Assembly (NCBI RefSeq): GCF_011045215.1
Contig: NZ_CP049201.1
DNA: 64,000 bases
Source of the DNA: Escherichia coli
GTDB taxonomy: Bacteria > Pseudomonadota > Gammaproteobacteria > Enterobacterales > Enterobacteriaceae
Direction: 5' to 3' (one strand)
Each line of letters starts with the position of its first letter. Positions within the stretch are counted from its first letter, which is position 1. This document shows positions 7,184 to 62,314 of this stretch, piece by piece. The position numbers were made by a program, and so were the translations under genes. The notes below the pieces were generated by a model, which had not been told where the DNA came from, did not search any database, and saw only the letters and a list, made by a program, of their open reading frames with translations.

Positions 7184-9463
7184 ATGGATGACCAGTTAAA
7201 ACAAAGTGCACTTGATTTCCATGAATTTCCAGTTCCAGGGAAAATCCAGGTTTCTCCAACCAAGCCTCTGGCAACGCAGCGCGATCTGGCGCTGGCCTAC
7301 TCACCAGGCGTTGCCGCACCTTGTCTTGAAATCGAAAAAGACCCGTTAAAAGCCTACAAATATACCGCGCGCGGTAACCTGGTGGCGGTGATCTCTAACG
7401 GTACGGCGGTGCTGGGGTTAGGCAACATTGGCGCGCTGGCAGGCAAACCGGTGATGGAAGGCAAGGGCGTTCTGTTTAAGAAATTCGCCGGGATTGATGT
7501 ATTTGACATTGAAGTTGATGAACTCGACCCGGACAAATTTATTGAAGTCGTCGCTGCGCTCGAACCGACCTTCGGCGGAATCAACCTCGAAGACATTAAA
7601 GCGCCAGAATGTTTCTATATTGAACAGAAACTGCGCGAGCGGATGAATATTCCGGTATTCCACGACGATCAGCACGGCACGGCAATTATCAGCACTGCCG
7701 CCATCCTCAACGGCTTGCGCGTGGTGGAGAAAAACATCTCTGACGTGCGGATGGTGGTTTCCGGCGCGGGCGCCGCAGCAATCGCCTGTATGAACCTGCT
7801 GGTAGCGCTGGGTCTGCAAAAACATAACATCGTGGTTTGCGATTCAAAAGGCGTTATCTATCAGGGCCGTGAGCCAAACATGGCGGAAACCAAAGCCGCA
7901 TATGCGGTGGTGGATGACGGCAAACGTACCCTCGATGATGTAATTGAAGGCGCGGATATTTTCCTCGGCTGTTCCGGCCCGAAAGTGCTGACCCAGGAAA
8001 TGGTGAAGAAAATGGCTCGGGCACCAATGATCCTGGCGCTGGCGAACCCGGAACCGGAAATTCTGCCGCCGCTGGCGAAAGAAGTGCGTCCGGATGCCAT
8101 CATCTGTACCGGCCGTTCCGACTACCCGAACCAGGTGAACAACGTCCTTTGCTTCCCGTTCATCTTCCGTGGCGCGCTGGACGTTGGCGCAACCGCCATC
8201 AACGAAGAGATGAAACTGGCGGCGGTACGCGCGATTGCAGAACTGGCCCATGCGGAACAGAGTGAAGTGGTGGCTTCAGCGTATGGCGATCAGGATCTGA
8301 GCTTTGGTCCGGAATACATCATTCCAAAACCGTTTGATCCGCGCTTGATCGTTAAGATCGCTCCTGCGGTCGCGAAAGCGGCGATGGAGTCGGGCGTGGC
8401 GACGCGTCCGATTGCTGATTTCGACGTATACATCGACAAGCTGACTGAGTTCGTTTACAAAACCAACCTGTTTATGAAGCCGATTTTCTCCCAGGCTCGC
8501 AAAGCGCCGAAGCGCGTAGTTCTGCCGGAAGGGGAAGAGGCGCGCGTTCTGCATGCCACTCAGGAACTGGTAACGCTGGGACTGGCGAAACCGATCCTTA
8601 TCGGTCGTCCGAACGTGATCGAAATGCGCATTCAGAAACTGGGCTTGCAGATCAAAGCGGGCGTTGATTTTGAGATCGTCAATAACGAATCCGATCCGCG
8701 CTTTAAAGAGTACTGGACCGAATACTTCCAGATCATGAAGCGTCGCGGCGTCACTCAGGAACAGGCGCAGCGGGCGTTGATCAGTAACCCGACAGTGATC
8801 GGCGCGATCATGGTTCAGCGTGGCGAAGCCGATGCAATGATTTGCGGTACGGTGGGTGATTATCATGAACATTTTAGCGTGGTGAAAAATGTCTTTGGTT
8901 ATCGCGATGGCGTTCACACCGCAGGTGCCATGAACGCGCTGCTGCTGCCGAGTGGTAACACCTTTATTGCCGATACATATGTTAATGATGAACCGGATGC
9001 AGAAGAGCTGGCGGAGATCACCTTGATGGCGGCAGAAACTGTCCGTCGTTTTGGTATTGAGCCGCGCGTTGCTTTGTTGTCGCACTCCAACTTTGGTTCT
9101 TCTGACTGCCCGTCGTCGAGCAAAATGCGTCAGGCGCTGGAACTGGTCAGGGAACGTGCACCAGAACTGATGATTGATGGTGAAATGCACGGCGATGCAG
9201 CGCTGGTGGAAGCGATTCGCAACGACCGTATGCCGGACAGCTCTTTGAAAGGTTCCGCCAATATTCTGGTGATGCCGAACATGGAAGCTGCCCGCATTAG
9301 TTACAACTTACTGCGTGTTTCCAGCTCGGAAGGTGTGACTGTCGGCCCGGTGCTGATGGGTGTGGCGAAACCGGTTCACGTGTTAACGCCGATCGCATCG
9401 GTGCGTCGTATCGTCAACATGGTGGCGCTGGCCGTGGTAGAAGCGCAAACCCAACCGCTGTAA
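7184..9463 (+). CDS. maeB: NADP-dependent malic enzyme (malic enzyme domain fused to PTA-like domain)
   Basis: 759-aa ORF; N-terminal malic enzyme domain and C-terminal phosphotransacetylase-like domain; divergent from talA. Confidence 0.9.
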
Positions 9464-17237: not shown

Positions 17238-17420
17238 ATGCCGGATGCGACGCTTGCCGCGTCTTATCCGGCCTACGGGATTGCACATGTAGAGCGGATA
17301 AAGCGTTCACGCCGCATCCGCCAGTGGCGCGGTGCAATTGCCGGATGCGACGCTTGCCGCGTCTTATCCGGCCTACGGGATTGCACATGTAGTGCGGATA
17401 AGGCTTCACGCCGCATCCGC
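17238..17420. repeat. BIME/REP cluster (two near-identical ~85-bp units)
   Basis: Unit gccggatgcgacgcttgccgcgtcttatccggcctacgggattgcacatgtag...gcggataa..cacgccgcatccgc present twice between eutG and eutH. Confidence 0.7.
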
Positions 17421-18679: not shown

Positions 18680-20079
18680 ACACTCGCCAGCTACTGAGCG
18701 TCGGTATCGATATCGGCACTACCACCACCCAGGTGATTTTCTCCCACCTGGAACTGGTTAACCGTGCGGCGGTGTCGCAGGTGCCGCGCTACGAATTCAT
18801 CAAACGCGAAATTAGCTGGCAAAGCCCGGTGTTCTTTACCCCTGTCGATAAACAGGGTGATTTAAAAGAAGCGGAACTGAAATCGCTGATTTTAGAGCAA
18901 TATCAGGCTGCGGGCATTGCACCGGAAAGCGTTGATTCTGGTGCCATCATCATCACCGGTGAAAGCGCGAAAACCCGCAATGCTCGCCCGGCGGTGATGG
19001 CGCTCTCTCAGTCGCTGGGCGATTTTGTCGTTGCCAGCGCCGGGCCGCACCTCGAATCCGTGATCGCCGGTCACGGAGCCGGGGCACAAACCCTTTCTGA
19101 ACAACGGCTGTGTCGGGTACTGAATATCGACATCGGCGGTGGCACCGCGAACTACGCCCTGTTCGATGCCGGAAAAATCAGCGGCACTGCCTGCCTCAAC
19201 GTCGGTGGTCGCCTGCTGGAAACCGACAGCCAGGGGCGCGTGGTTTACGCTCATAAACCGGGGCAGATGATTGTGGATGAGTGCTTCGGCGCAGGCACCG
19301 ACGCCCGTTCGCTGACCGGCGCGCAGCTGGTGCAGGTTACCCGGCGGATGGCAGAGCTGATTGTCGAAGTGATTGACGGAACGCTCTCGCCGCTCGCGCA
19401 GGCATTGATGCAAACCGGTTTGCTGCCCGCAGGTGTTACGCCCGAAATCATTACGCTTTCTGGCGGCGTGGGCGAATGTTATCGCCACCAGCCCGCCGAC
19501 CCGTTCTGTTTTGCCGATATTGGCCCGCTTCTGGCAACGGCGCTGCATGACCATCCGCGCCTGCGTGAGATGAACGTGCAGTTTCCGGCGCAAACCGTGC
19601 GTGCCACGGTGATTGGCGCGGGGGCACATACCCTTTCGCTCTCTGGCAGCACAATCTGGCTTGAGGGCGTACAACTGCCGCTGCGCAATTTGCCGGTGGC
19701 GATCCCGATTGATGAAACGGATCTGGTGAGTGCCTGGCAACAGGCGCTGATTCAACTGGATCTTGATCCCAAAACTGACGCGTACGTGCTGGCGCTTCCC
19801 GCCTCGCTGCCTGTGCGTTACGCCGCGGTACTGACGGTCATCAACGCGTTGGTCGATTTCGTCGCGCGTTTTCCGAATCCGCATCCCCTGCTGGTGGTGG
19901 CCGGGCAGGACTTTGGTAAAGCTCTGGGCATGTTGTTGCGCCCACAGCTACAACAACTCCCGTTGGCAGTCATTGACGAAGTGATTGTCCGCGCGGGGGA
20001 CTATATCGACATTGGTACGCCTCTTTTTGGCGGATCGGTTGTGCCGGTGACGGTGAAATCACTCGCATTTCCTTCCTGA
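18676..20079 (+). CDS. eutA: Ethanolamine ammonia-lyase reactivase EutA
   Basis: 467-aa ORF, 4-nt overlap with eutH; eut operon synteny; followed by the inserted element. Confidence 0.9.
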   Translation: MNTRQLLSVGIDIGTTTTQVIFSHLELVNRAAVSQVPRYEFIKREISWQSPVFFTPVDKQGDLKEAELKSLILEQYQAAGIAPESVDSGAIIITGESAKTRNARPAVMALSQSLGDFVVASAGPHLESVIAGHGAGAQTLSEQRLCRVLNIDIGGGTANYALFDAGKISGTACLNVGGRLLETDSQGRVVYAHKPGQMIVDECFGAGTDARSLTGAQLVQVTRRMAELIVEVIDGTLSPLAQALMQTGLLPAGVTPEIITLSGGVGECYRHQPADPFCFADIGPLLATALHDHPRLREMNVQFPAQTVRATVIGAGAHTLSLSGSTIWLEGVQLPLRNLPVAIPIDETDLVSAWQQALIQLDLDPKTDAYVLALPASLPVRYAAVLTVINALVDFVARFPNPHPLLVVAGQDFGKALGMLLRPQLQQLPLAVIDEVIVRAGDYIDIGTPLFGGSVVPVTVKSLAFPS

Positions 20080-20172
20080 ATACTGTAGTTATCAGGCGTG
20101 GCGCTGGGTTGCGGGGTGTTAGTGGGATTATATCCGGCTGTGTATCCGGTCGGGGTGATTGGTCTGTATAGC

Positions 20173-20194
20173 AAAACCCGGCGCGGGGCCGGGT
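20173..20194 (-). terminator. Intrinsic terminator (minus-strand orientation)
   Basis: On minus strand reads ACCCGGCCCCGCGCCGGGTTTT: GC stem CCCGGC/GCCGGG followed by U-run, 7 nt after stop of the 20201-20761 gene; identical copy at 21822-21843. Confidence 0.6.
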
Positions 20195-20200
20195 GAACTA

Positions 20201-20761
20201 TCATTCAGGGAACAAGTTGATTTGAAGCAAACTGCCAATGTATTTACCAGTGCTTTTAATTTTTCGCTTTGATGGCTTACACGAATTCAGGTTGACACCA
20301 GCCTGGCTAGATATTGGCTTGTATTGCCGCTCCGCCAGTACGATCAGGTCTGCCGCGTCTTTTAGCTTTCCATCGTTAGCCAGTTCCAATGCTCGATCCG
20401 CCATTTGCCCGCATTGTTGAATCAGCTTAAGTTGCGATACCTCCAGTCGCAATTGCTGGATTCGTTCTACCACTTTCGCCCTAATGCGCTTAGTTTCACG
20501 CATTCCCATTCTTAATGCCTGGTTGCCAGTAAGTGAGTAAACCTCTTTTTCTTTCCTGAAGTTTGCGGCTTTACCGTCAGCTTGGACGCGCATTTTATGC
20601 GCTTCCAAGAATTCGCCCTCCAATTCATCCCTGATCTTCGCGTTGAATCTGTCGTTCTTGAGTTCATTTAACCCTTCCGCCTTGCGGATCTGGTTGATTA
20701 ACTCCAACAATTCATCACTGCGGATACGCCACTCGCTATCAACCTGTACCAAGTCAAACAT
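20201..20761 (-). CDS. Hypothetical phage protein (186 aa from ATG with GGGAG RBS; coiled-coil, possibly regulatory)
   Basis: ORF with good RBS upstream of internal ATG at 20761 (track start 20854 is TTG); no confidently recognised domain. Confidence 0.55.
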   Translation of the reverse strand: MFDLVQVDSEWRIRSDELLELINQIRKAEGLNELKNDRFNAKIRDELEGEFLEAHKMRVQADGKAANFRKEKEVYSLTGNQALRMGMRETKRIRAKVVERIQQLRLEVSQLKLIQQCGQMADRALELANDGKLKDAADLIVLAERQYKPISSQAGVNLNSCKPSKRKIKSTGKYIGSLLQINLFPE

Positions 20762-20924
20762 GTTGTTGCTCCCGTTTTGCTGCCATAGGGCAACGGCTCG
20801 CCAGCCTTTATCACCTCCTTTAGTTGTTGCGATTCTTAACTGAATGGTTATCAAAACGCTGCGTTAATATCATTGATATGTATCAAATTTGTTTTGTGAC
20901 GCGACAATGCCTTGTGAATATCAA

Positions 20925-20949
20925 TAAAAAACCCAGCGCTATGGCTGGG
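20925..20949 (-). terminator. Intrinsic terminator (minus-strand orientation)
   Basis: Minus strand CCCAGCcatagcGCTGGG followed by UUUUUU, 45 nt downstream of stop of 20995-21723 gene. Confidence 0.5.
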
Positions 20950-20994
20950 CTTCTCTTGATGGCTGGTTTTGTAGCTAATCGTTGGCTTTAAGGG

Positions 20995-21723
20995 TTAAGC
21001 AACAATATTAATCCCGCTCCTTGTCGCTGCCTCTTTGGCAATTTTCCCCTCGTCCTCCAGTTTAGCTAACGCCTTGTACATCCAGTGGCGGCCCGGTGCG
21101 CCATGCAGCTTGCCATCTTTGCCGATCTTACCGAACGCATGTAACGCCAAATCGTCGATAGTCCCCTTGTATCCGCCTTGCTCCTTAAGCCATTGCTCAA
21201 GCTGTTCTACTTTGAATTTTGCCGGACGTCCGCCAGCCGCTTTTTGTTGTTTAGCTGGTTCTTCTGCAATATCGCTTTTGTTGTTTAAGTCCGTCATGAC
21301 TGGTTCTCCTACAATAGCGTCGCCCTTGGTCTCGATTTGTTGATTAACTGGTTTGTCTACAATATCGATTTTGTTGTTTAGCTGGTTTTTCAACATATCA
21401 ATCTCAGCCTTTAGCGCCTCGTTTTCTCTGGCTAGTTCTTCGCAACGCTTGATAAATTTTTGTTCCATGCCGTCCGGGCTATCAACGTGCGCCGTACCCA
21501 TTACGATCTTCCCGTTGCTATCGAAGATGACAGCTTGCCAACCGACTGCGGCGAGCATTTTAAACACATCATCAGCGGTCTTGTTTGTTGTATCGCGACG
21601 CCCTTTAAACTTGTGGCTAGCAGCGCCTTTGCCTTTGAAGCCCATTGCCTCAGCGACATCTTGCCGCGTCATCTTGCGAGCGCGCTTGTTCATGCCTAAC
21701 TCAACCCAATCCATGTATTCCAT
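20995..21723 (-). CDS. Hypothetical phage protein with internal tandem peptide repeats (242 aa)
   Basis: ORF with GAGGT RBS; DNA and protein contain imperfect tandem repeats (LNNKIDIVDKPVNQQ / LNNKSDIAEEPAKQQ); basic N-terminal region possibly DNA-binding. Confidence 0.6.
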   Translation of the reverse strand: MEYMDWVELGMNKRARKMTRQDVAEAMGFKGKGAASHKFKGRRDTTNKTADDVFKMLAAVGWQAVIFDSNGKIVMGTAHVDSPDGMEQKFIKRCEELARENEALKAEIDMLKNQLNNKIDIVDKPVNQQIETKGDAIVGEPVMTDLNNKSDIAEEPAKQQKAAGGRPAKFKVEQLEQWLKEQGGYKGTIDDLALHAFGKIGKDGKLHGAPGRHWMYKALAKLEDEGKIAKEAATRSGINIVA

Positions 21724-21821
21724 ACATTACCTCATTTTGTCGCTAAACGTTTTGCTTTCTAATTTATCAACAAAAAAGCGGGTGATGGTAGCCGCTTTGA
21801 TGGGGAAGTTGACAGGGATCA

Positions 21822-21843
21822 AAAACCCGGCGCGGGGCCGGGT
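21822..21843 (-). terminator. Intrinsic terminator (minus-strand orientation), identical copy of 20173-20194
   Basis: Same 22-bp sequence aaaacccggcgcggggccgggt; 18 nt downstream of stop of AlpA-like gene 21861-22091. Confidence 0.6.
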
Positions 21844-21860
21844 ATTAGCAAGTTAGATGA

Positions 21861-22091
21861 TTACTGGGTATCGCTGTCAGAAAGTAGTCCAATTGATTTA
21901 AAGAATTTCATCACATCCTGATAGCGATACATGACGCCCCGCCCGGTTCCCAGCACATCAACAGGGTCGGGGAATGGAGTTCCGTTCTGTTCCCATTTCT
22001 TACGCCACGAATAAAACGTTCCCCTGCTAATTCCGCCCAGCATCCGGCAGATGGCAGGGCGGCTAAGAAGGATTACTTCATTTTTATCCAT
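21861..22091 (-). CDS. AlpA-family phage transcriptional regulator / excisionase-like HTH protein (76 aa)
   Basis: Motif LSRPAICRMLGGISRGTFYSWRKK...FPDPV typical of AlpA/Xis-type HTH; GGGAGA RBS. Confidence 0.6.
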   Translation of the reverse strand: MDKNEVILLSRPAICRMLGGISRGTFYSWRKKWEQNGTPFPDPVDVLGTGRGVMYRYQDVMKFFKSIGLLSDSDTQ

Positions 22092-22110
22092 TGTTTAATC
22101 TCCCGTGTGT

Positions 22111-22299
22111 TTATTTTGCGTAGATTAAGGCAAATGCTCTTTTGGCTTTGCTTAGTTCGTATTCGCGTTTTTCTATGATTGCCATCAGTTCTTGTGCGGT
22201 GGCTGGCACGCCCGCTCTTATCAGCGCAATCTTAGTATCCATAGCGCACACTCTTTCACGCACCATATCGAAGATAATTTCCGCTCTATCGTGTTTCAT
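22111..22299 (-). CDS. Small hypothetical protein (62 aa)
   Basis: ORF with strong GAGGTGA RBS 5 nt upstream of ATG; 19 bp upstream of AlpA-like gene, likely co-transcribed. Confidence 0.5.
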   Translation of the reverse strand: MKHDRAEIIFDMVRERVCAMDTKIALIRAGVPATAQELMAIIEKREYELSKAKRAFALIYAK

Positions 22300-22648
22300 G
22301 ATTTCACCTCATATTTGTTGCTAAACCTTGTAAACCCTTGTTTGACTACAAAATACACCTGGTTAAGCGACTGATAAAATGATTTAGGTCAATTTATTGG
22401 TTGATGATTTATGTCTGATTGGATTTGTCTACAAATGGCAGGTTAGTCAACAAATGATGAAACCAGGGAATGGCGGTTATAATGTCAGCGGGGATTGTGA
22501 GAAAGGCCCGGGTAGGTTGCTAACTGCCTGGGCCTTTATTTTTGGCGCGTGTACGTGAAATCTGGAAAATTTGCAGGGTAGTTGTTGAGGGATTTTTCGC
22601 GTAGGAGCGTGAAGGGTCCGCCAGTCATCGCCCTGACGTAGCGGTGAA

Positions 22649-23050
22649 TTACTTGCGAGGCTCACCCATCGGCCAGGCACCTTCATTGCGACGATAACCA
22701 ATCCGGTACTCTTCCGGCAGCGGCAAGCCCTGCTCACGATATGGACGCAGATCGAAGCCAAAAACAGGATCGTCGTCGTAGGCGAGGAATAGCCCGGCAG
22801 GCTCTGCCACGCGTTCGATAATCAGTTCCCCATCTTCAACGAAGAAGATCAGATTATCGCGAAAGTCCGTTACCTCACTGACGTGATAACATTCGGCATG
22901 TGCGTCCAGCCAGGCTTCTCGGTATTCCTGAATCTCGGCTTCTGACCATGTTGAAACAGGACGCTCCCAAATTCCCAGGCTGGATTTGCCCTGGCGGGAG
23001 AATAATTTTGCCTCTTTGCTCTGCTCTGGTTTTCTGTTTAAAAAGCTCAT
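22649..23050 (-). CDS. Hypothetical protein (133 aa)
   Basis: ORF with AAGGAGAA RBS; no recognised domain. Confidence 0.55.
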   Translation of the reverse strand: MSFLNRKPEQSKEAKLFSRQGKSSLGIWERPVSTWSEAEIQEYREAWLDAHAECYHVSEVTDFRDNLIFFVEDGELIIERVAEPAGLFLAYDDDPVFGFDLRPYREQGLPLPEEYRIGYRRNEGAWPMGEPRK

Positions 23051-23186
23051 TATTCTTCTCCTTTGAACGGATTGTTCTTGCTCTCTAATAACTTAGCGCG
23101 ACCCAGTAACGTCCGGGCAAGCGCCTCCGCCTTCCTTAGCCTAAGCCCTGCGTCTTCTGCGTCCAGATCTACATTCCTGATAGCCT

Positions 23187-23450
23187 CTACAGCCTGCTCC
23201 GCTGCGTCCGGGCGTGAATCCACTTAAATATGCCGATATGCTCACGAAAGTCTGGATGCTCATATTGCCAGCGGCAGATTGTTCTGAAGCTCGGCATGTC
23301 AGGCATGTTGCCAATCTCTCTGAGACTATGGCCTTCAGCTACCAGCAAGCAGATTTCTTCAGCGATAGCGACCCCATACTTAGCGCTTTTTCTGCTTAAA
23401 CTTGTGACATCAACAGGTAAGTTATTGATTTCTTTATCATCACCCTTCAT
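23187..23450 (-). CDS. Small HTH protein resembling the DNA-binding domain of phage terminase small subunits (87 aa)
   Basis: Motif AEGHSLREIGNMPDMPSFRTICRWQYEHPDFRE resembles TerS-type HTH; GGGGGTAA RBS; family assignment is from memory and tentative. Confidence 0.4.
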   Translation of the reverse strand: MKGDDKEINNLPVDVTSLSRKSAKYGVAIAEEICLLVAEGHSLREIGNMPDMPSFRTICRWQYEHPDFREHIGIFKWIHARTQRSRL

Positions 23451-23525
23451 AATTACCCCCGAATTGATAGCGAATTGATAGCGAATTACCCCGAATTACC
23501 CCCGAATTACCCCCGAATCACCATC
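23451..23525. repeat. Tandem array of about 6.5 copies of an 11-bp unit (AATTACCCC(C)G x4 and AATTGATAGCG x2)
   Basis: Directly visible: aattaccccc g aattgatagc g aattgatagc g aattacccc g aattaccccc g aattaccccc g aatcaccatc, exactly filling the gap between the 93-aa gene stop and the 87-aa gene start. Confidence 0.85.
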
Positions 23526-23527
23526 AT

Positions 23528-23809
23528 TTAACCCTCGCCTACGTCTGCGTCGATGCTTGCTAACTGGCTGTGTAGATCGCGTTCAATCATTTTTACCTTT
23601 TTCACAAAATCCCTTTCCTCGGCGGTGGCGGGCGCGCCCTGGGCTATGTTTTTCGTGAGGTCGTGGAAAGTGCCGAAAACATAAAGGGAGAACAGCCTTA
23701 ATTGTTGCCGCTTCATTGGCAAATCACTGTTGCTATGTTTGATCTCAGCGACGCCTTTCGAAATAACACGGGCCATCCCATGACAAATTCTTAACGTAAG
23801 CGCAGACAT
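23528..23809 (-). CDS. Hypothetical protein (93 aa)
   Basis: ORF with GGGGAG RBS; no recognised domain. Confidence 0.5.
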   Translation of the reverse strand: MSALTLRICHGMARVISKGVAEIKHSNSDLPMKRQQLRLFSLYVFGTFHDLTKNIAQGAPATAEERDFVKKVKMIERDLHSQLASIDADVGEG

Positions 23810-23930
23810 GATATTTACTCCCCGACTGGTATAATGAACGTGGTTTTAAACGTTGCTATTTGCTAACCATTTAATCTGTTAACTCAATTTCGCATTGTTG
23901 GCCCGGCACGAACACCGGGCTTTTCTTTAC

Positions 23931-24272
23931 CTATTCGAAATAGCTTCCAATATCCGGTGTCCGGGTATCAGTTTTCCGGGTCGGCTCGAAGTACGATTCC
24001 AGATCCGGCGTTTTCGGCCCACGCTGGGCGTTGGCGGCGGGTTGCTTTTCTTCTGGCTGTTCCGGCTGTTTACTACCAAATCGGCGCTCCAGTTGGTCCA
24101 TCAGCACTACCATCATTTCCTGGACCAGCTTTTCATCGGCTTTATCAAGGTTCTCCAATACCATCGCCATCCCTTTGCGGAATTTAAGCTCAGCGTCGTC
24201 CGGTTCCGGTGCTGATTCGTTTGCTTTAACTGCCAGGGCGATCCGGCGTTTTGCTTCATCCAAAAAATTCAT
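23931..24272 (-). CDS. Hypothetical acidic protein ending in repeated SYFE motif (113 aa)
   Basis: ORF with GGGGGAA RBS overlapping stop of upstream gene; C-terminus ...DLESYFEPTRKTDTRTPDIGSYFE. Confidence 0.5.
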   Translation of the reverse strand: MNFLDEAKRRIALAVKANESAPEPDDAELKFRKGMAMVLENLDKADEKLVQEMMVVLMDQLERRFGSKQPEQPEEKQPAANAQRGPKTPDLESYFEPTRKTDTRTPDIGSYFE

Positions 24273-24277
24273 TTTGT

Positions 24278-24721
24278 TTATTCCCCCATGTGGAAATAGT
24301 CATCTAAGCGGCGATTAAACTCGTCGCTGCCATCGAAATATTCACGGATACTTTTATTGACCAGATCATCACCGTCGAAATACTGGCGCGTGAAATCGTC
24401 CAATTCCCCATCGAAGTATTGACGTGTGAAATCGTCTAATTCCCCTTCAAAATATTGACGCGCATCAGGCGCTCTGTTTGGCGCTGTAGCAATCTCAGAT
24501 TGATTGCCCTGTAACTTATCGACGTTTGCTAAATACACGCCCAGTGAGCTGTTTGTTCCCATTACCGCAAGCATTTTCCGGCGATCTGCCATGTTCGGCG
24601 CGAGCGATGATAATTGAGCTTTAATTTTGTCCACTTCCTGATTAACAATACGGTCAATCAGTGGTTGATTCGTGCGAATAATTTCCTGTGCCAACTGGCG
24701 AATATATTCTTTGCGTGTCAT
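24278..24721 (-). CDS. Hypothetical protein with C-terminal tandem RQYF(D/E)GELDDFT repeats (147 aa)
   Basis: ORF with GGAGAT RBS; encoded by about 3.5 tandem 36-bp DNA repeats near 24330-24465. Confidence 0.55.
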   Translation of the reverse strand: MTRKEYIRQLAQEIIRTNQPLIDRIVNQEVDKIKAQLSSLAPNMADRRKMLAVMGTNSSLGVYLANVDKLQGNQSEIATAPNRAPDARQYFEGELDDFTRQYFDGELDDFTRQYFDGDDLVNKSIREYFDGSDEFNRRLDDYFHMGE

Positions 24722-24739
24722 TTCTTATCTCCGTTCATC

Positions 24740-25123
24740 TCATTTCTGTAAAAAACCCATACCGTGGCCCAGGCGATTTGAAATTTTCCCGGCAAGCATC
24801 CGGCGAATATGTTTTTCGTTGATGATGTCGTGAGTGACCGGATCTTCACCTTTCATACATTCCGGCATCTGGTCAAACAATACGGAAGCGCCTTCATCAA
24901 TAATCTCAGTTAAGACTGCTGGCAGCATATTAATGATGCGTTCTGCTTCGTCGTTCATTGCTTTATCGAACGCTTTTTTATCCATTGCTTCGGCGGATGG
25001 TTTGTAATTGTCGCCAGTCAGGTTAAGGTAAGTGTTGTTTGGGTGATACATGGCATTCACTCCTTTTACTTTGATTGTTGCGATTTCTTTGTTTTTGTTA
25101 ATTGTGGTGCCTTTGACTTTCAT
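24740..25123 (-). CDS. Hypothetical protein (127 aa)
   Basis: ATG overlaps stop of HNH gene (ATGA), suggesting translational coupling; no recognised domain. Confidence 0.5.
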   Translation of the reverse strand: MKVKGTTINKNKEIATIKVKGVNAMYHPNNTYLNLTGDNYKPSAEAMDKKAFDKAMNDEAERIINMLPAVLTEIIDEGASVLFDQMPECMKGEDPVTHDIINEKHIRRMLAGKISNRLGHGMGFLQK

Positions 25124-25539
25124 GCTGCTTCTTCCTTCAATAATTGTGGCAATTTGCCTGTTAGTTCGATTTCTTCATTAATAGATGCAAGTAACTGTCT
25201 CAGTTTGCGATGTAATAGCTGGTGACGCTCTCTCGGCATTTTTACCAGGTTGCTTAAGCGGTTATTCTGCGGATCGTAGTCCCGGTGATGGATATCATAT
25301 TTTCGCTCATCGTAAACACCGTAGCACCATAACCAGGCAGCCTTTTCTATTGTCATGCAGGTACGTTTTCCGTTGCTTAAACAAATGGTTATACTCAGGT
25401 GACCGCGATGTTTTTCGTTTAAGCTGCCTTTAATTACCTGGCCTGTGCTGCGGTTGTGAAATAAACCAGTTTCAGGGTCGTAGTGATATTTCTGTCGTAA
25501 TATATCAACTGATAACCGTAGTCTTGTAAGATTGTCCAT
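25120..25539 (-). CDS. HNH homing-type endonuclease (139 aa)
   Basis: Motif YDIHHRDYDPQNNRLSNLVKMPRERHQ (HH...N...N...H) typical of phage HNH nucleases; GAGGTAG RBS. Confidence 0.7.
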   Translation of the reverse strand: MDNLTRLRLSVDILRQKYHYDPETGLFHNRSTGQVIKGSLNEKHRGHLSITICLSNGKRTCMTIEKAAWLWCYGVYDERKYDIHHRDYDPQNNRLSNLVKMPRERHQLLHRKLRQLLASINEEIELTGKLPQLLKEEAA

Positions 25540-25571
25540 GATGTTCTACCTCAATGTGATTGCTGTGTTAA

Positions 25572-25757
25572 TTATCTTTCTTCTTGTGGCCTATTCAGCC
25601 AGGCCTCGATCTCGCTACGCCAGAATAATAAACGACAATTTCGCGGCGTAAATGGTTGGGGTATTGTCTTATCTTTTAATAGCCATCTTCGAATCGTTCT
25701 TGTTGATACCCCCGCTATTAATGCGAAAGCTCGCAGATCTATAACTTCATCTCTCAT
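25572..25757 (-). CDS. AlpA-like HTH regulator (61 aa from ATG with GAGGT RBS)
   Basis: Sequence LIAGVSTRTIRRWLLKDKTIPQPF...WRSEIEAWL matches AlpA/Xis-type HTH pattern; track ORF start 25862 is a TTG extension. Confidence 0.55.
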   Translation of the reverse strand: MRDEVIDLRAFALIAGVSTRTIRRWLLKDKTIPQPFTPRNCRLLFWRSEIEAWLNRPQEER

Positions 25758-26537
25758 GTTCTTACCTCGATTAAAAAGGACCGCCCCCAGGGAAAGAAGA
25801 AAGAGGAAAGAGGAAAGAGGAAAAACTTCCTGGAGGCGGGTAATTCGGATTCCTTGAATCAATATCCCATGTGATACTTAATATTATAAAGGGCGGCGGG
25901 CTATGTCGCTATTTTTGCCATAGTGTGACACCATTAATTTATTAACAAAAAGTGCTATTTATTAAATCTTTTTTCGGCAGGTGCAAGAAAAATAATTGCG
26001 ACACGGTAGGGTAGCGGGCGATAATAATCATGTAAGGAGTAGCCACCTTACGCCTCCAAATGTGATCGATAAAAATAATAGTCTCAATTCTTTCTCCCGC
26101 TTCTCGGCGGTTTTTTTGCCTGCAATCACACATCAAAAAAACACATCGAATTGATATGCCTTTAAAACGCAATATAACGCATTTTGACGGCCTTAATTTT
26201 TGCCTATCCACTCGGAAGCGTAAGCCTGTTTTGATTCGTCTGGCGTGGAATGGTGCGGCGGTAATATCAGATCTCAGCGTTCTGTGTGGTGGGATGGAAT
26301 AGCCTGGCAGGATCTGCGTGTGATTTCATTCATCCAACCTTGGATGAATGGTCCGATCTGGTCAGTAGTCCGGCACAAATAAAAAGCGCCTGCGGGCGTA
26401 GCAGACGCTTTGTGTACAGGCTTATCAGTACGGGATGTGCACGAATGATTATACCACCCTCAGAAAAACGTTTGCTTTTGCACTTAAACGGATAAGTGGT
26501 ATTTCTTGGTCTTCATTGGTTTTAGCTCACCATAGGC

Positions 26538-26765
26538 TCATTTAGGTGCGCCCCTGTCGATAATTCGGTACATGTTCTCGGTATATCTCCCGTTAATCAC
26601 CGTTCTGGTAACAACAATCACACCGTTTTCCTCCAGAAAGGCAATGGCCCGCTTCACTCCCTGGCGGCTTACACCGGATAGCTGCGCCAGCCTGTCAATG
26701 GAGATGTTGTATTTGTCCGGCTGGCTTGTCAGGATCTGGAATACCGCTCGTGCTGTTTTCGTCAT
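26538..26765 (-). CDS. Small winged-helix DNA-binding protein (75 aa), candidate regulator
   Basis: Sequence ISIDRLAQLSGVSRQGVKRAIAFLEENGVIV has HTH character; divergent from the plus-strand cassette; RBS weak. Confidence 0.45.
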   Translation of the reverse strand: MTKTARAVFQILTSQPDKYNISIDRLAQLSGVSRQGVKRAIAFLEENGVIVVTRTVINGRYTENMYRIIDRGAPK

Positions 26766-27037
26766 GGCAAAAACTCATTGAAATTGGATACCCTTAGAAC
26801 GCTCTCAAACGCTCCGTAATGCGATGAGAATTTTACCTAAGCAAGTGTAGCTCTTTATTAGTTTTATGATGCCGTAGGCCGATAGAAGGTGCGCTCTCTG
26901 AAGTTTCATTGTCTATCAGTGGTGGGTAATGCTGCCTTTACTATTGGCGTCAAGAAAATCACTGGTGTAGATTGGGCGAATAGTTTACTATTCAAACAAG
27001 GCACAATGGCCTTAGCGGATTGATGTCAGGAGATACC

Positions 27038-27385
27038 ATGTCAAAAATAGTTACTTTGTTTGCGACTAAGCGAGAAGGGAAATCCCTTTCTGTGCGCACT
27101 CGTAAGCCAAAAGCTATGACTGGCTTGCGTAAAACAAATCGTCTGACGCATCTTGACGCGTTAGCGTATCGACTAGGATACCAGTTGGTGCGCGGTAAAA
27201 GTGTCATGTTTCGCTACACTGCTACTCTCGATCACGAAGAAAACAAAGTGATGAATGCGGCCTCGCCTATGGCTGTACCACGAGTAAAAAAAATGACGTT
27301 CACACAAGCGTGTGATTTATCAAAAGATTTATTCGATTCACGAGAAGAACGCTTAAAGAGTGTAAGCTTTGATGGTCCAGAATGA
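27038..27385 (+). CDS. Basic 115-aa protein, candidate partner (antitoxin or regulator) of downstream YafO-like gene
   Basis: ATG at 27038 preceded by AGGAGA RBS; stop overlaps start of next gene by 14 nt; basic N-terminus and acidic C-terminus; no recognised family. Confidence 0.5.
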   Translation: MSKIVTLFATKREGKSLSVRTRKPKAMTGLRKTNRLTHLDALAYRLGYQLVRGKSVMFRYTATLDHEENKVMNAASPMAVPRVKKMTFTQACDLSKDLFDSREERLKSVSFDGPE

Positions 27386-27887
27386 ATTTATTGGTAAGGT
27401 CTACAGTGATAACAAGTTTAAAACAAACGATGAATTAAAGAGCTTTAAGGATTCGTTTATTTATCATTGGAGATATGGACATCATCCTGATTTTGGAAAG
27501 GATACTCTTTTCCATAAACCCCCGTGTGTATATCCTATCCATTTACGTAAAGTCCATGTAAATATTGGTCTTTATACCAATCAGTACGGCTATAGCGGGA
27601 CAGAACAATGCTGGGATGACTGGTCTACTGGTCGTTATGGTCCCGGTGGTTTCGAAAAAGTTACCCCTACATCTGATGCTTATCTTATATACGCTGTATG
27701 TAAAAATAGAAATGCTGGCGTGTTAGACTTCTGGTTTCCTCCCGCACACAAAAACGCTGAGTTCGAATCCTCTGTACAGTTTGTGGCTGAGATGGCTGAT
27801 AAGTTTTATGAGTCTATCAAGGCGGACCCGATGCCGCGCGATCAGAATCCTTGGCATACGGGGTATATAGTTAAAAAACCAGCCTGA
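27372..27887 (+). CDS. YafO-family toxin-like protein (171 aa)
   Basis: Motifs F-I-Y-H-W-R-Y-G...PDFGKDTLF, YPIHLRKVHVN and SDAYLIYAV line up with recalled YafO motifs (FISYKRDG...PDIFGRDALY, ERVAHIHLAN, DEAHLVYCQG); similarity judged from memory, not computed. Confidence 0.45.
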   Translation: MVQNEFIGKVYSDNKFKTNDELKSFKDSFIYHWRYGHHPDFGKDTLFHKPPCVYPIHLRKVHVNIGLYTNQYGYSGTEQCWDDWSTGRYGPGGFEKVTPTSDAYLIYAVCKNRNAGVLDFWFPPAHKNAEFESSVQFVAEMADKFYESIKADPMPRDQNPWHTGYIVKKPA

Positions 27888-28438
27888 TCCACGCAATACT
27901 GATTGTTTTTGGCCTTGTATGGTGTGGTCTGATTTGAGGCAAAATTATTTAATCCCTTAAAAAACTAACTTCAAAAGACTAAAACCAGGGGGATGGTCCC
28001 TCTCGCTCCGCTCCAGGTACCATCCCTGTCGGGATGGGTTTATTGTAGAGTTAAAATTAATTACTCACATCGTCACACCTTGCGAAAGTTTTGCTCAATT
28101 ATCATTCAAACATAGCACAAAAAATATTCGATTTAGTTAGTGTGCACTGACTTTTTTATCAATTTACTTTCATTCGAAAGTCATGGGTTAAATATTAATC
28201 ATCTGGCTGTGGCACGCATGGATTCACCGAGGGTATTTTGGACCATTTGGTCAAAATTCATAAGTACATGATTTCATGGTGATTTATTTTTCTGTATCTT
28301 GCTTTCATTCGAAAGTGGAAACGAAGAATTGGCAATTTATTGATTCAGATCATTGACATTGCATATTTGTGGCGGTTGTCACGGTTGTTTTTTGAGCGCT
28401 TCAACCGTCGATATTGAGTATAAACCCGGCCTTATAGT

Positions 28439-29644
28439 TCACGGTTCAAGTGGATTACCGTCACCAGCCAATATTGAATCAATAGCGTCGGCGTAATCCT
28501 GCATCATTGCTCGCCGTTGCTTCAGGTAGGCCGCCTGGTTATAAACGCCGCGCACACCTTTCGGGACGTGGGCCAATTGGATTTCGATCCAGTCTGGTGA
28601 GTATCTGCCAGACTCATTAAGCGCCGTTGAAAAGGTGGTCCGCCAGCCATGACCAGTGGCAATGGATTTATAGCCGATCCTCTCAAGCGCCTTCAGTATC
28701 GCGCTGGCTGAAAGTGGCTTATCCATGAATCGACCAGGGAAGACGAAAGCACTGTATCCGCTCCTTGTAAACTGGTCCTGTAATAGCTCCACCGCCTGCC
28801 GTGATAGCGGGACCACATGCGGGCGGCGGGCCTTCATGACTTCAGCGGGCAATGTGATTGTTGCGTCCTCCAGGTTTATCCATTCCCAACGGCACAAACG
28901 CAGTTCTGCGGTCCTTAATGCCGTTAATATAAGCAAACGTATTGCCGTCTGAATCTGGACGCTCCCGGCCCTCTCAAGGGCTTTGTAGAAGGCCGGAATT
29001 TCACTAATCGGTATCCACGCGTTGTGACCAGGTCGGCGGGCCTTCAGTGCCGTATCAAGATCTGCAACCGGATTCCTCGTTACCAGTTCGGTGATAACGG
29101 CAAACTTGAAGATCTCACCGATGCGCTGGCGTAGCTTGCGGGCCTGCTCCGGTGCGGTACGTTCTTTCTTCTGGAGTAATGCCAGCACGTCACGGGCGGT
29201 TATATCGACAATCGACCGCTTGCCAAGTACCGGATAGACGTCTTTTTCTAGGGCCGATCTGACCTGTTTTGCATAGGATTCCGACCACCCTCCAACCCTA
29301 GTAGCAAACCAGTCTTCCGCCACCTTCTTAAATCCTGCCGCCATGTTGAGCGCATCAATGGCTTTTTCCTTGCGGGCTTGTTCCACTGGGTTAATTCCAT
29401 TGGCAATAAGGGATCTGCTCTCCGTGGCGCGCCTGCGTGCTTCTTTGAGTGTGATTAGCGGGTAAACACCAATAGCCTGCAAAAACTCTCGTTTATTCAA
29501 CCAATACCTGAATCGCCAGTATTTCGAACCGTTGGGATGCACCAGCAAAAACAGCCCCGGCGTCAGTGAATCGGTGAGTTTATAGGGCTTGTCCTGCGGC
29601 TGTGCGGCGTCTATGGCCTTTGCTGTGAGTGGTGTCTTGCTCAA
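28439..29644 (-). CDS. intZ: Tyrosine-type site-specific integrase (prophage integrase)
   Basis: 401-aa ORF with phage integrase features (N-terminal arm-binding domain, C-terminal catalytic region with ...HGWRTT...); sits at the element end beside eutB as intZ does in E. coli K-12; start appears to be TTG. Confidence 0.8.
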   Translation of the reverse strand: MSKTPLTAKAIDAAQPQDKPYKLTDSLTPGLFLLVHPNGSKYWRFRYWLNKREFLQAIGVYPLITLKEARRRATESRSLIANGINPVEQARKEKAIDALNMAAGFKKVAEDWFATRVGGWSESYAKQVRSALEKDVYPVLGKRSIVDITARDVLALLQKKERTAPEQARKLRQRIGEIFKFAVITELVTRNPVADLDTALKARRPGHNAWIPISEIPAFYKALERAGSVQIQTAIRLLILTALRTAELRLCRWEWINLEDATITLPAEVMKARRPHVVPLSRQAVELLQDQFTRSGYSAFVFPGRFMDKPLSASAILKALERIGYKSIATGHGWRTTFSTALNESGRYSPDWIEIQLAHVPKGVRGVYNQAAYLKQRRAMMQDYADAIDSILAGDGNPLEP

Positions 29645-29832
29645 AACCGGATACCTTGATTTAACGACTGGATAACCCCGATCATGTATCCGGCGCGTTC
29701 GGTTGCGTTCGGCAGGATAAGTAACGGGCGTATTAAGTGGAACACCTTACAGGACAAGGGCTAACGATGAAATAGAATTGTTTGCAGGCTGTGAGAAATG
29801 TTAATCGTCACTTCTTCCTGAGGGAACGACTT

Positions 29833-31194
29833 ATGAAACTAAAGACCACATTGTTCGGCAATGTATATCAGTTTAAGGATGTAAAAGAGGTGCTGGCTAA
29901 AGCCAACGAACTGCGTTCGGGGGATGTGCTGGCGGGCGTCGCAGCGGCAAGCTCACAGGAGCGCGTGGCGGCAAAGCAGGTGTTGTCGGAAATGACCGTA
30001 GCGGACATCCGCAATAATCCGGTGATTGCCTATGAAGATGACTGCGTGACGCGGCTGATTCAGGACGATGTTAACGAAACGGCCTACAACCAGATTAAAA
30101 ACTGGAGCATCAGCGAACTGCGTGAGTATGTGCTGAGCGATGAAACCAGCGTGGACGACATTGCCTTTACCCGCAAAGGGCTGACCTCGGAAGTGGTCGC
30201 GGCGGTAGCGAAGATTTGCTCCAACGCGGACCTGATCTACGGCGCGAAGAAAATGCCGGTAATCAAAAAGGCCAATACCACCATCGGTATTCCGGGCACC
30301 TTCAGCGCCCGTTTGCAGCCAAATGACACTCGTGACGACGTGCAAAGTATCGCCGCGCAAATCTACGAAGGGCTTTCCTTCGGGGTGGGCGATGCGGTGA
30401 TCGGCGTTAACCCGGTGACTGACGACGTGGAAAACTTAAGCCGCGTGCTGGATACCATTTATGGCGTGATCGACAAATTCAACATCCCAACTCAGGGCTG
30501 CGTACTGGCGCACGTCACCACTCAGATCGAAGCGATTCGTCGTGGCGCACCAGGCGGGCTGATTTTCCAGAGTATCTGTGGCAGTGAAAAAGGGCTGAAA
30601 GAGTTTGGCGTGGAACTTGCGATGCTCGACGAAGCGCGCGCAGTGGGTGCAGAGTTCAACCGTATCGCCGGGGAAAACTGCCTCTACTTCGAAACCGGAC
30701 AAGGTTCAGCGCTATCCGCTGGCGCTAACTTCGGCGCAGACCAGGTGACGATGGAAGCACGTAACTATGGGCTGGCGCGTCATTACGATCCGTTTATCGT
30801 CAACACCGTGGTCGGCTTTATTGGGCCGGAGTATCTCTACAACGACCGCCAGATTATCCGTGCGGGCTTAGAAGATCACTTTATGGGCAAGCTGAGCGGC
30901 ATCTCTATGGGCTGTGACTGCTGTTACACCAACCACGCTGACGCTGACCAGAACCTCAACGAAAACCTGATGATCCTGCTCGCCACCGCAGGCTGCAACT
31001 ACATCATGGGGATGCCGTTGGGCGATGACATCATGCTCAACTACCAGACCACGGCCTTCCACGACACTGCCACTGTGCGTCAGTTACTCAACCTGCGCCC
31101 GTCACCGGAGTTTGAACGCTGGCTGGAAAGCATGGGCATTATGGCAAACGGTCGCTTGACCAAACGGGCGGGCGATCCGTCACTGTTCTTCTGA
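29833..31194 (+). CDS. eutB: Ethanolamine ammonia-lyase large subunit
   Basis: 453-aa product from ATG at 29833 (MKLKTTLFGNVYQFKDVKEV...); EutB family. Confidence 0.9.
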   Translation: MKLKTTLFGNVYQFKDVKEVLAKANELRSGDVLAGVAAASSQERVAAKQVLSEMTVADIRNNPVIAYEDDCVTRLIQDDVNETAYNQIKNWSISELREYVLSDETSVDDIAFTRKGLTSEVVAAVAKICSNADLIYGAKKMPVIKKANTTIGIPGTFSARLQPNDTRDDVQSIAAQIYEGLSFGVGDAVIGVNPVTDDVENLSRVLDTIYGVIDKFNIPTQGCVLAHVTTQIEAIRRGAPGGLIFQSICGSEKGLKEFGVELAMLDEARAVGAEFNRIAGENCLYFETGQGSALSAGANFGADQVTMEARNYGLARHYDPFIVNTVVGFIGPEYLYNDRQIIRAGLEDHFMGKLSGISMGCDCCYTNHADADQNLNENLMILLATAGCNYIMGMPLGDDIMLNYQTTAFHDTATVRQLLNLRPSPEFERWLESMGIMANGRLTKRAGDPSLFF

Positions 31195-61715: not shown

Positions 61716-61775
61716 ATCGCAGATAGCAAAAAAGCGCCTTTAGGGCGCTTTTTTACATTGGTGGGTCGTGCAGGA
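61716..61775. repeat. Duplicated copy of the lysV 3-prime end plus its terminator (60-bp direct repeat; second copy at 61872-61931 is the native one)
   Basis: atcgcagatagcaaaaaagcgcctttagggcgcttttttacattggtgggtcgtgcagga occurs twice 156 bp apart; the last 17 nt are the tRNA-Lys acceptor/T-arm end. Confidence 0.75.
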
Positions 61776-61914
61776 TGACTCGCTTCGCTCGCCCTTCGGG
61801 CCGTCGCCGCGAGCGGCTCCGTTGTTTCGCTACGCTCAACTCAAACCTGCTGCAGGTTCGAATCTTTGAGTATCGCAGATAGCAAAAAAGCGCCTTTAGG
61901 GCGCTTTTTTACAT

Positions 61915-61990
61915 TGGTGGGTCGTGCAGGATTCGAACCTGCGACCAATTGATTAAAAGTCAACTGCTCTACCAACTGAGCTAACGACCC
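61915..61990 (-). tRNA. lysV: tRNA-Lys (anticodon UUU)
   Basis: Reverse complement gives GGGTCGTTAGCTCAGTTGGTAGAGCAGTTGACTTTTAATCAATTGGTCGCAGGTTCGAATCCTGCACGACCCACCA, 76 nt with CCA; last gene of val-val-val-lys tRNA operon. Confidence 0.9.
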
Positions 61991-61994
61991 GAAG

Positions 61995-62070
61995 TGGTGG
62001 GTGATGACGGGATCGAACCGCCGACCCCCTCCTTGTAAGGGAGGTGCTCTCCCAGCTGAGCTAATCACCC
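61995..62070 (-). tRNA. valY: tRNA-Val (anticodon UAC)
   Basis: Reverse complement gives GGGTGATTAGCTCAGCTGGGAGAGCACCTCCCTTACAAGGAGGGGGTCGGCGGTTCGATCCCGTCATCACCCACCA; third of three identical copies in transcription order. Confidence 0.85.
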
Positions 62071-62116
62071 ACTTCGGTATTTCACATTTTTACAAGAAAT
62101 TTAGCTGGTGAGAAAG

Positions 62117-62192
62117 TGGTGGGTGATGACGGGATCGAACCGCCGACCCCCTCCTTGTAAGGGAGGTGCTCTCCCAGCTGAGCTAATCACCC
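62117..62192 (-). tRNA. valX: tRNA-Val (anticodon UAC)
   Basis: Identical 76-nt tRNA-Val sequence; middle copy. Confidence 0.85.
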
Positions 62193-62238
62193 ACTTCGGT
62201 ATTTCACATTTTTACAAGAAATTTAGCTGGTGAGAAAG

Positions 62239-62314
62239 TGGTGGGTGATGACGGGATCGAACCGCCGACCCCCTCCTTGTAAGGGAGGTGCTCTCCCAGC
62301 TGAGCTAATCACCC
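62239..62314 (-). tRNA. valU: tRNA-Val (anticodon UAC)
   Basis: Identical 76-nt tRNA-Val sequence; promoter-proximal copy, divergent from gltX. Confidence 0.85.

Follow-up and report, generated by a model that had tools for sequence, protein, structure and literature searches.

A conserved hairpin facing against the genes of an Escherichia coli eutA/eutB island is most likely the terminator of a small unannotated RNA gene

The 64-kb stretch of Escherichia coli DNA analyzed here (the window) carries, in the spacer between two minus-strand genes of an island, a plus-strand hairpin that is real and that most likely ends the transcript of a small RNA gene missing from the annotation. An earlier note on this DNA, made from its letters alone, had recognized the hairpin and its tail; what its author overlooked is a plus-strand sigma-70 promoter (ATGATA-16-TGgTATAAT, 23808–23835) that lies 65 nt before the stem. 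With this dedicated, invariant promoter upstream, the hairpin is better explained as the 3′ end of a discrete sRNA gene of ~87 nt than as a general antisense stop. We consider it rather likely that a real, independent plus-strand unit is present, and our preferred explanation, which we hold to be probable, is that the hairpin terminates a conserved cis-antisense sRNA unit with its own promoter; the specific regulatory outcome is proposed with lower confidence than the unit itself. If expressed, this would be an unannotated sRNA gene, absent from both Rfam and the RefSeq annotation. The coordinates of the features are collected in Table 1.

Table 1. Positions of the spacer, its flanking genes and the elements of the predicted RNA unit in the window.
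Feature	Position	Strand	Basis or remark
113-aa gene, stop abutting the terminator	23931..24272	−	ORF list
93-aa YffM-family gene, directly downstream of the spacer	23528..23809	−	ORF list; 37% identity to K-12 YffM
Spacer, presumed cis target, 121 nt	23810..23930	−	Sequence, ORF list
−35-like hexamer ATGATA	23808..23813	+	Overlaps the start codon of the 93-aa gene (23809–23807, minus)
Extended −10 TGgTATAAT	23827..23835	+	Promoter scan, invariance across 16 variants
Predicted non-coding RNA, ~87 nt	~23842..23928	+	Start 7 nt past the −10 (± 2 nt), end within the T-run
Possible long-range helix 1, AACGUUGC (23849–23856) with GCAUUGUU (23892–23899)	23849..23899	+	RNAalifold consensus
Terminator stem-loop: GGCCCGG, 8-nt loop, CCGGGCU	23900..23921	+	Fold, conserved pairing
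T-run TTTTCTTT (U-tail)	23921..23928	+	On the plus side in all variants

Results

The hairpin is oriented as a plus-strand terminator

The earlier note had placed a stem of GCCCGG (23901–23906) and CCGGGC (23915–23920) around the loop cacgaaca (23907–23914), with the tail TTTTCTTT directly 3′ of the stem and the end of the T-run 3 nt before the stop codon of the minus-strand 113-aa gene (cta on the plus strand, TAG on the minus strand, 23931–23933), and the window contains all of these elements exactly as described. A possible G23900–U23921 pair would lengthen the stem to seven pairs, six of them G–C. Together with its tail, the hairpin folds at −13.0 kcal/mol, compared with −6.3 ± 2.0 kcal/mol in shuffled sequences, 1 of 200 of which was as good (z = −3.4). 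A scan of positions 20000–30000 returned 27 terminator-like sites in the 10 kb (11.1 ± 3.3 in shuffles), among which the hairpin at 23901 ranks third; one terminator-like hairpin is thus not rare by itself, and it is conservation, not the motif, that argues against chance.

The flanks of the hairpin define its direction. After the hairpin the minus strand reads CAACAAUGCG, in the window as in its variants, and as this is no U-run the plus-strand orientation of the terminator is correct. The A-run expected 5′ of the stem of a bidirectional terminator is also missing, the sequence there being CGCATTGTTG, which is conserved in the variants. T occupies 7–8 of the 8 tail positions in all 16 variants (TTTTCTTT, TTTTTCTT, TTTCTTTT, and TTTTTTCT), giving a U-tail with 4–6 consecutive U broken by C, and the terminator loop varies freely in both sequence and length. 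The C that interrupts the U-tail and the fairly large 8-nt loop were counted against our preferred explanation. With a G+C-rich stem-loop, a U-run 3′ of the stem and pairing held in evolution, the hairpin has the sequence features by which an intrinsic terminator would be recognized.

A promoter upstream defines a predicted RNA of ~87 nt

The promoter (ATGATA-16-TATAAT plus TG) has 10 of 12 matches and is the top promoter match in the 20000–30000 scan; TGNTATAAT sites occur just twice in the 64 kb when both strands are searched. Among the variants the −35 hexamer is poorly conserved (ATGATA or ATGTGT), so the promoter probably depends on its −10 and TG elements. In the commonest variant TG abuts TATAAT instead of standing one base away, which was also counted against the preferred explanation. 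The length from promoter to terminator is 87–93 nt in all variants, despite many indels. No conserved start codon or ORF was found in the plus-strand RNA across the variants; a small ORF on this strand was considered and rejected, as the sole start in the window copy opens 8 codons and is not conserved. At the gathering threshold, no family in Rfam 15 matches the predicted RNA, and a permissive Rfam search (E up to 10) returned Trp-leader alone, at 15.6 bits against a gathering score of 41, with just the terminator aligned.

The RNAalifold consensus includes a possible long-range helix (helix 1), formed between AAC(G/A)UUGC near the 5′ end and GC(A/G)UUGUU just 5′ of the terminator. It is 96.7% paired across 13 variants, with changes that proceed through G–U only and no double substitutions, and there is moderate support for helix 1 as the closing element of an AU-rich, weakly structured body. 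Single-sequence folds of this body disagree, with z values from −1.2 to −3.4 and no well-supported conserved fold; the terminator is the sole robust structural part of the RNA.

Promoter, pairing, and spacing are retained among diverged spacers

Spacers were collected from ten genome variants, from nine assemblies reached via homologues of the 93-aa protein and from the circular pRHB34-C15_2, and the resulting comparison set consists of 16 distinct intergenic versions, all from E. coli elements, with pairwise identities of 52–97% (median 68%). Related sequence is present in just 31–34 of 5,426 complete E. coli genomes; carriers of the unit include C41 (NZ_CP127252), OW1E2 (NZ_CP067245) and O157:H7 PV15-279. 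The longest block that is invariant across the 16 versions is TATAAT; the next is CATG, which on the opposite strand holds the start codon of the 93-aa gene. The stem and the plus-side T-run are kept in 16/16 homologous versions, and the terminator helix is 98.9% paired with two independent compensatory changes, G–C to A–U in the E47/O157 version and G–C to C–G in the PK13 type. In a sliding control the pairing falls from 97.8% to 32–44%, and the covariation of the whole structure (terminator helix plus helix 1) was equalled by 4 of 500 shuffles. The 17 cells with G–U pairs suit the plus strand only, the minus-strand equivalent being an A–C mismatch; as the variable pairs are mostly G–U on the plus strand and A–C on the minus strand, the plus strand is indicated as the folded RNA. 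The earlier proposal of a plus-strand terminator that ends antisense transcripts is therefore supported by conservation and by strand-specific G–U pairing, although a general stop to long antisense RNAs is the weaker reading.

A covariance model trained on 13 variants recovers exactly one copy in each island. It places the copy of the window at 23840–23928 (91.5 bits) and picks up the copy of pRHB34-C15_2, on which it was not trained, at 56.6 bits; it finds no copy in K-12 or in the strain designated L137. The unit always lies directly upstream of the YffM-like gene, even where its other neighbor is exchanged: the gene on that side is the 113-aa gene, an unrelated 60-aa gene (L008–L010, L135/6) or a 141-aa gene (pRHB34-C15_2). 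In L137 promoter and hairpin are absent together. The L137 locus (Logan ERR3985288_194, 1355–1515) has an HNH gene that ends 5 nt before the YffM-like gene, with the entire spacer missing, and provides a ready-made natural comparison strain. The CPZ-55 element of K-12 has a YffM homologue and no sRNA unit.

Every homologue comes from E. coli; the sequences have a common ancestry, and some of their conservation is inherited. Species-representative genomes scanned with TTTCGCRTTGTTNNCCCSG gave 100 chance matches and no true homologues, suggesting that the unit is not widespread beyond E. coli strains. A metagenome scan with a degenerate promoter/terminator pattern, which was too loose, gave 120 matches that were all due to chance, and a scan of viral contigs for the conserved 3′-terminal part of the 113-aa gene yielded 0 matches.

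The divergent circular relative pRHB34-C15_2 (L142, CP057168.1) comprises 9,003 bp and was deposited as a non-mobilizable E. coli plasmid. It carries HTH, HNH, YffM-like, and small-terminase-like genes together with an intact sRNA unit, and a serine recombinase replaces IntZ. The record may represent a related island in excised or episomal form.

Setting of the unit in a CPZ-55-type island

In the window, eutA ends at 20079 and is followed by a 9.6-kb island in which all protein genes lie on the minus strand; the island ends with an IntZ-type integrase (28439–29644), after which eutB follows. Related islands in other E. coli strains occupy the same eutA/eutB site, with intZ annotated, and in K-12 the cryptic prophage CPZ-55 lies there. 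The island genes encode AlpA-like HTH proteins, an HNH endonuclease, an Sf6-type small-terminase-like protein, and anti-repressor-like proteins, to which fuller relatives add an HK97 gp10-like protein and a 730-aa tape-measure-like protein. Judged by gene content alone, this island of the CPZ-55 family looks like a phage satellite; we found no paper in the literature that classifies a CPZ-55-type island.

Homologues of the 113-aa protein, whose gene lies upstream of the spacer, form 260 clusters, every one from E. coli, and the protein matched nothing in Pfam or PHROGs. For the 93-aa YffM-family protein, searches of Pfam, PHROGs, and PDB sequences were empty; AlphaFold2 predicts a three-helix bundle (pLDDT 91), with fold matches to generic helical bundles only. 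The ORF at 23187–23450, after the YffM-like gene, matches the Sf6 small-terminase family. Both the 113-aa protein and the 147-aa protein encoded next to it (24278–24721, minus) have C-terminal repeated acidic-aromatic motifs (DLESYFE...DIGSYFE; RQYF(E/D)GELDDFT three times, then REYFDG and DDYF), which suggest repeated short docking peptides; the 147-aa protein also has no Pfam or PHROG matches.

Two adjoining tandem arrays of 11-nt repeats occupy 23460–23522 (CGAATTGATAG, 2.5 copies, and CGAATTACCCC, 3.8 copies), in the gap that separates the end of the YffM-like gene from the beginning of the small-terminase-like gene. They might serve as a packaging site or as an array bound by a protein; in K-12, 23-nt repeats of unrelated sequence (four copies) precede yffM. 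Relative to the C41 copy, the small-terminase-like gene (23050–23450, minus) has a 1-nt deletion at ~23209 that leaves ORFs of 87 and 57 aa in place of 133 aa, and the 2.2-kb tape-measure-like gene of the relatives is absent from the window (22300–22650). The island of the window is thus decaying. Despite the decay, its sRNA unit is 99.3% identical to the C41 copy.

Discussion

A predicted cis-antisense RNA at the entry to packaging-type genes

As the protein genes of the island are all on the minus strand, the predicted RNA is perfectly complementary to the 121-nt spacer, and this full complementarity makes a cis-antisense role the best guess. At the sequence level it has several features of an antisense sRNA: a promoter of its own on the opposite strand, short length, no coding capacity, and its own terminator. 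It spans the gap between two same-strand genes 121 nt apart whose co-transcription we infer: a promoter scan and a reading of the variant sequences gave no convincing or conserved candidate for a minus-strand promoter inside the spacer, so that the 113-aa and 93-aa genes are probably co-transcribed. By duplex energies, the sole strong pairing partner of the RNA within the island is the cis site.

The mechanism that we propose runs as follows. Sigma-70 transcription would start near 23842 from the extended −10 TGgTATAAT, and RNA polymerase would halt in the T-run at ~23925–23928, releasing a non-coding RNA of ~87 nt. This RNA would pair with the spacer of the minus-strand message to create an RNase III substrate, as is known for lambda OOP and GadY; alternatively, pairing might cost the message the ribosome standby region upstream of its Shine-Dalgarno sequence, a familiar mode of control. 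Polymerases entering the packaging-type genes would also be impeded by convergent transcription from the promoter, located over the start codon of the YffM-like gene. The net effect, as long as the island is quiescent, would be that the packaging-type genes are held down or are uncoupled from the genes upstream. The Shine-Dalgarno sequence of the 93-aa gene (GGGGAG, 23823–23818) is located within the spacer of the sRNA promoter, 19 nt outside the predicted duplex, which starts 33 nt upstream of the YffM-like start codon. Given this gap of 19 nt, simple occlusion of the ribosome-binding site in the style of P22 sar is unlikely.

If expressed, the RNA would represent an unannotated sRNA family at the entry to the YffM-like/small-terminase block, in a little-studied island family that occupies the eutA/eutB site in ~0.6% of complete E. 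coli genomes. The unit, whose TATAAT lies outside any coding sequence, would offer a handle on how satellite-like islands silence their packaging-type genes, and it illustrates how ‘orphan’ terminators that oppose the reading direction of a mobile element's genes can point to hidden antisense genes.

Comparison with known RNA regulators

The lambda OOP RNA is a 77-nt antisense RNA with a constitutive promoter and an intrinsic terminator; it overlaps the 3′ end of its target gene and the intergenic region and acts through duplex formation and RNase III cleavage. The predicted 87-nt RNA resembles OOP in being short, in having its own promoter and terminator and in lying on the opposite strand of a mobile-element operon. 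However, OOP overlaps the end of the cII coding sequence, whereas the 87-nt RNA ends 3 nt before it would reach the upstream stop codon, and the two are unrelated by sequence, by Rfam and in their target genes. The sar RNA of phage P22 is antisense to the arc-ant spacer, has its promoter where the downstream gene begins, and controls that gene. It shares with the unit described here a promoter that fires against the operon and an RNA complementary to the spacer between two genes (co-transcribed by inference in our case), but sar covers the ant ribosome-binding site and the predicted duplex of the 87-nt RNA ends 19 nt upstream of the Shine-Dalgarno sequence, so the mechanism would have to differ, with processing, a standby-site block or transcriptional interference as the candidates. 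GadY of E. coli is encoded in cis opposite the gadX-gadW spacer, where its pairing directs the processing of the two-gene message with a positive effect on gadX. Both GadY and, by prediction, the 87-nt RNA are antisense to an intergenic region within an operon; GadY is an Rfam family, which the 87-nt RNA does not match.

Two further comparisons concern satellites. The CI RNA of satellite phage P4 is processed from a sense leader and pairs with the seqA/seqC repeats to cause early termination. It is likewise an RNA regulator in an E. coli satellite that limits its own operon, a role that for the 87-nt RNA is predicted; CI is a sense leader product, whereas the 87-nt RNA would be antisense with its own predicted promoter, and the island has no repeated complementary sites of the P4 CI type beyond chance (segments of ≥10 nt). 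SviR, an sRNA of the Vibrio cholerae satellite PLE, acts in trans through defined seeds against targets in phage ICP1 and also affects the processing of PLE's own messages (Dunham, Angermeyer and Seed, bioRxiv 10.1101/2022.04.08.487710). What the two share is that each, by prediction in our case, is a small RNA from an island of phage-satellite type and is maintained throughout its element family. The differences are that no trans target was found for the 87-nt RNA in the window, the island or the phage records, that host and element family are unrelated, and that the satellite status of the present island is deduced from gene content. The kind of regulator is therefore familiar, and the sRNA gene proposed here is most likely a modest new example; as this kind is well known, its general significance is modest too.

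Alternative explanations

The same sRNA might do its main work in trans, perhaps with Hfq, on helper-phage or host messages, with the overlap of the spacer being incidental. Its 3′ half (UUAAUCUGUUAACUCAAUUUCGCAUUGUUGG) is more conserved than its 5′ half and crosses a mosaic boundary at ~23871, an AU-rich, weakly structured RNA beside a terminator is typical of trans-acting sRNAs, and there is a precedent for a satellite sRNA acting on satellite as well as phage messages (Dunham et al., bioRxiv 10.1101/2022.04.08.487710). We nevertheless consider a primarily trans-acting role unlikely: ten-mer complementarity in the 64-kb window gave 10 and 7 matches where ~4.8 were expected, with nothing conserved beyond chance; duplex energies against the 5′ regions of the other island genes, the putative leader RNA and the sister RNA (see below) revealed no significant partner, save for a trivial palindromic stem–stem match; and 50,697 phage records contain no related sequence. 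A 14-nt stretch of eutA (18821–18834, plus; AAAGCCCGGTGTTC) is the reverse complement of the terminator 3′ arm and part of the loop, but the part that matches the loop is unique to the window variant, so the match is probably due to chance. Alternatively, the hairpin could be a general plus-strand insulator against long antisense RNAs or eutA read-through, with TATAAT conserved for some other reason. The island splits the eut operon, so that read-through from eutA must come in on the plus strand; plus-strand terminator-like sites recur across the island, and antisense 3′ ends have been mapped by Term-seq inside CPZ-55 of K-12 (PMC7815308). An insulator as such leaves the invariant −10 at a fixed 87–93 nt before the hairpin unaccounted for, as well as the joint presence or absence of promoter and hairpin and the retention of the unit in the 9-kb circular relative, which lacks an adjoining eutA. 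Read-through from eutA, which the earlier note had offered as one source of the terminated transcripts, is not needed and is without specific support; such transcripts would have to run through 3.8 kb and past at least three other plus-strand terminator-like sites, meeting stronger ones (e.g., 22502–22537) first. Insulation as the principal function is thus quite unlikely in our judgment, although it would be compatible with the cis-antisense explanation as a secondary role.

The hairpin could also serve the minus-strand message, as a 3′ stabilizer or processing site or as a partial barrier before the packaging-type genes, given that it folds on the minus strand too (−14.1 kcal/mol) and lies 3–15 nt past the minus-strand stop codon in most variants. 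No variant has a minus-strand U-run after the hairpin, and one base pair that is G–U in 9 of 13 variants, along with several pairs of helix 1, would be an A–C mismatch on the minus strand. Moreover, the hairpin persists when the upstream gene is swapped for unrelated ones, and a minus-strand function does not explain the invariant TATAAT; a role of this kind is very unlikely. In particular, the condition by which the earlier note would have given up its own reading—a hairpin that acts solely as a 3′ stabilizer of the minus-strand mRNA—is disfavored, as the hairpin is kept where the upstream gene differs and several of its plus-strand G–U pairs become A–C on the other strand. Finally, promoter-like and terminator-like motifs may have been juxtaposed by chance, without function, and appear conserved through recent common ancestry. 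Terminator-like motifs are indeed common here (27 in 10 kb) and the homologues all come from one species, but TATAAT, the stem pairing with its compensatory changes and the spacing have been retained while the flanks diverged to 52% identity, and we regard chance as an extremely improbable explanation.

Other promoter and terminator pairs in the island

The earlier note had linked the hairpin to a second one near 22505 as signs of recurrent plus-strand termination. This link is reasonable, but the two are better explained as antisense units with promoters of their own than by read-through from eutA. The 22505 hairpin (stem 22502–22537, then ATTTTTGG) has a plus-strand TATAAT at 22478–22483, ~19 nt upstream, and the sister unit (22478–22546, plus) has a predicted RNA of ~57 nt. 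With the yffP-yffQ spacer of K-12, in which the motif reads TGaTATAAT, the region shares 92% identity; its counterparts lie at ~2563239–2563300 (minus) in K-12 (NC_000913.3) and at 7240–7300 in locus L132. In L137, C-to-T changes in the sister stem keep U–G pairs on the plus strand only. Genomic SELEX has located a site for the RpoD holoenzyme in the K-12 yffP-yffQ spacer, and the motif assigned to it (CTCACA-16-TATCAC) is on the opposite strand and coincides with the position of the sister TATAAT (Shimada et al. 2014, PMC3946193). Term-seq of K-12 under three growth conditions detected no 3′ end at the sister homologue at ~2563239 (Adams et al. 2021, PMC7815308), so such units may be silent or weak.

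The same K-12 Term-seq data contain strong antisense 3′ ends within CPZ-55 at 2560302 (minus) and 2561657 (minus) of NC_000913.3 (Adams et al. 2021, PMC7815308), from which it follows that antisense units exist in this element family. One of these ends, opposite yffL, has a classic terminator (CCCCCGG...CCGGGGGCTTTTATTT), and the other faces yffM/yffN; both sequences are absent from the window, and the sites are not homologous to the sRNA unit.

The second TGGTATAAT of the window is on the minus strand (26456–26448) and is followed 30 nt on by a strong terminator (26411–26383, then TTATTTG). The resulting unit (26456–26375, minus) has a predicted leader-like RNA of ~65 nt before the AlpA-like/HNH operon, is conserved with compensatory stem changes in five related loci (L001, L002, L004, L005, and L007) and could be a constitutively terminated leader that needs antitermination. 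A further site at 25996–26118 (plus) combines a promoter-like GCGACA-16-GATAAT (25998–26025) with a short hairpin and a T7 run (26097–26117), in the regulatory gap between two HTH genes. It is conceivable that at least three conserved promoter-plus-terminator units (the present one, 22478–22546, and 26456–26375) jointly gate the packaging-type genes, and that one or more of their RNAs may act on helper-phage messages, as SviR does for PLE; we think this scenario quite unlikely, but if true it would amount to an RNA-based layer of satellite–helper control undescribed in E. coli satellites. Elsewhere in the window, ordinary Rfam matches were obtained to an naRNA4/REP-type element in the eut region (17292–17373, plus) and to a Val-Val-Val-Lys tRNA cluster with RtT (61759–62314, minus).
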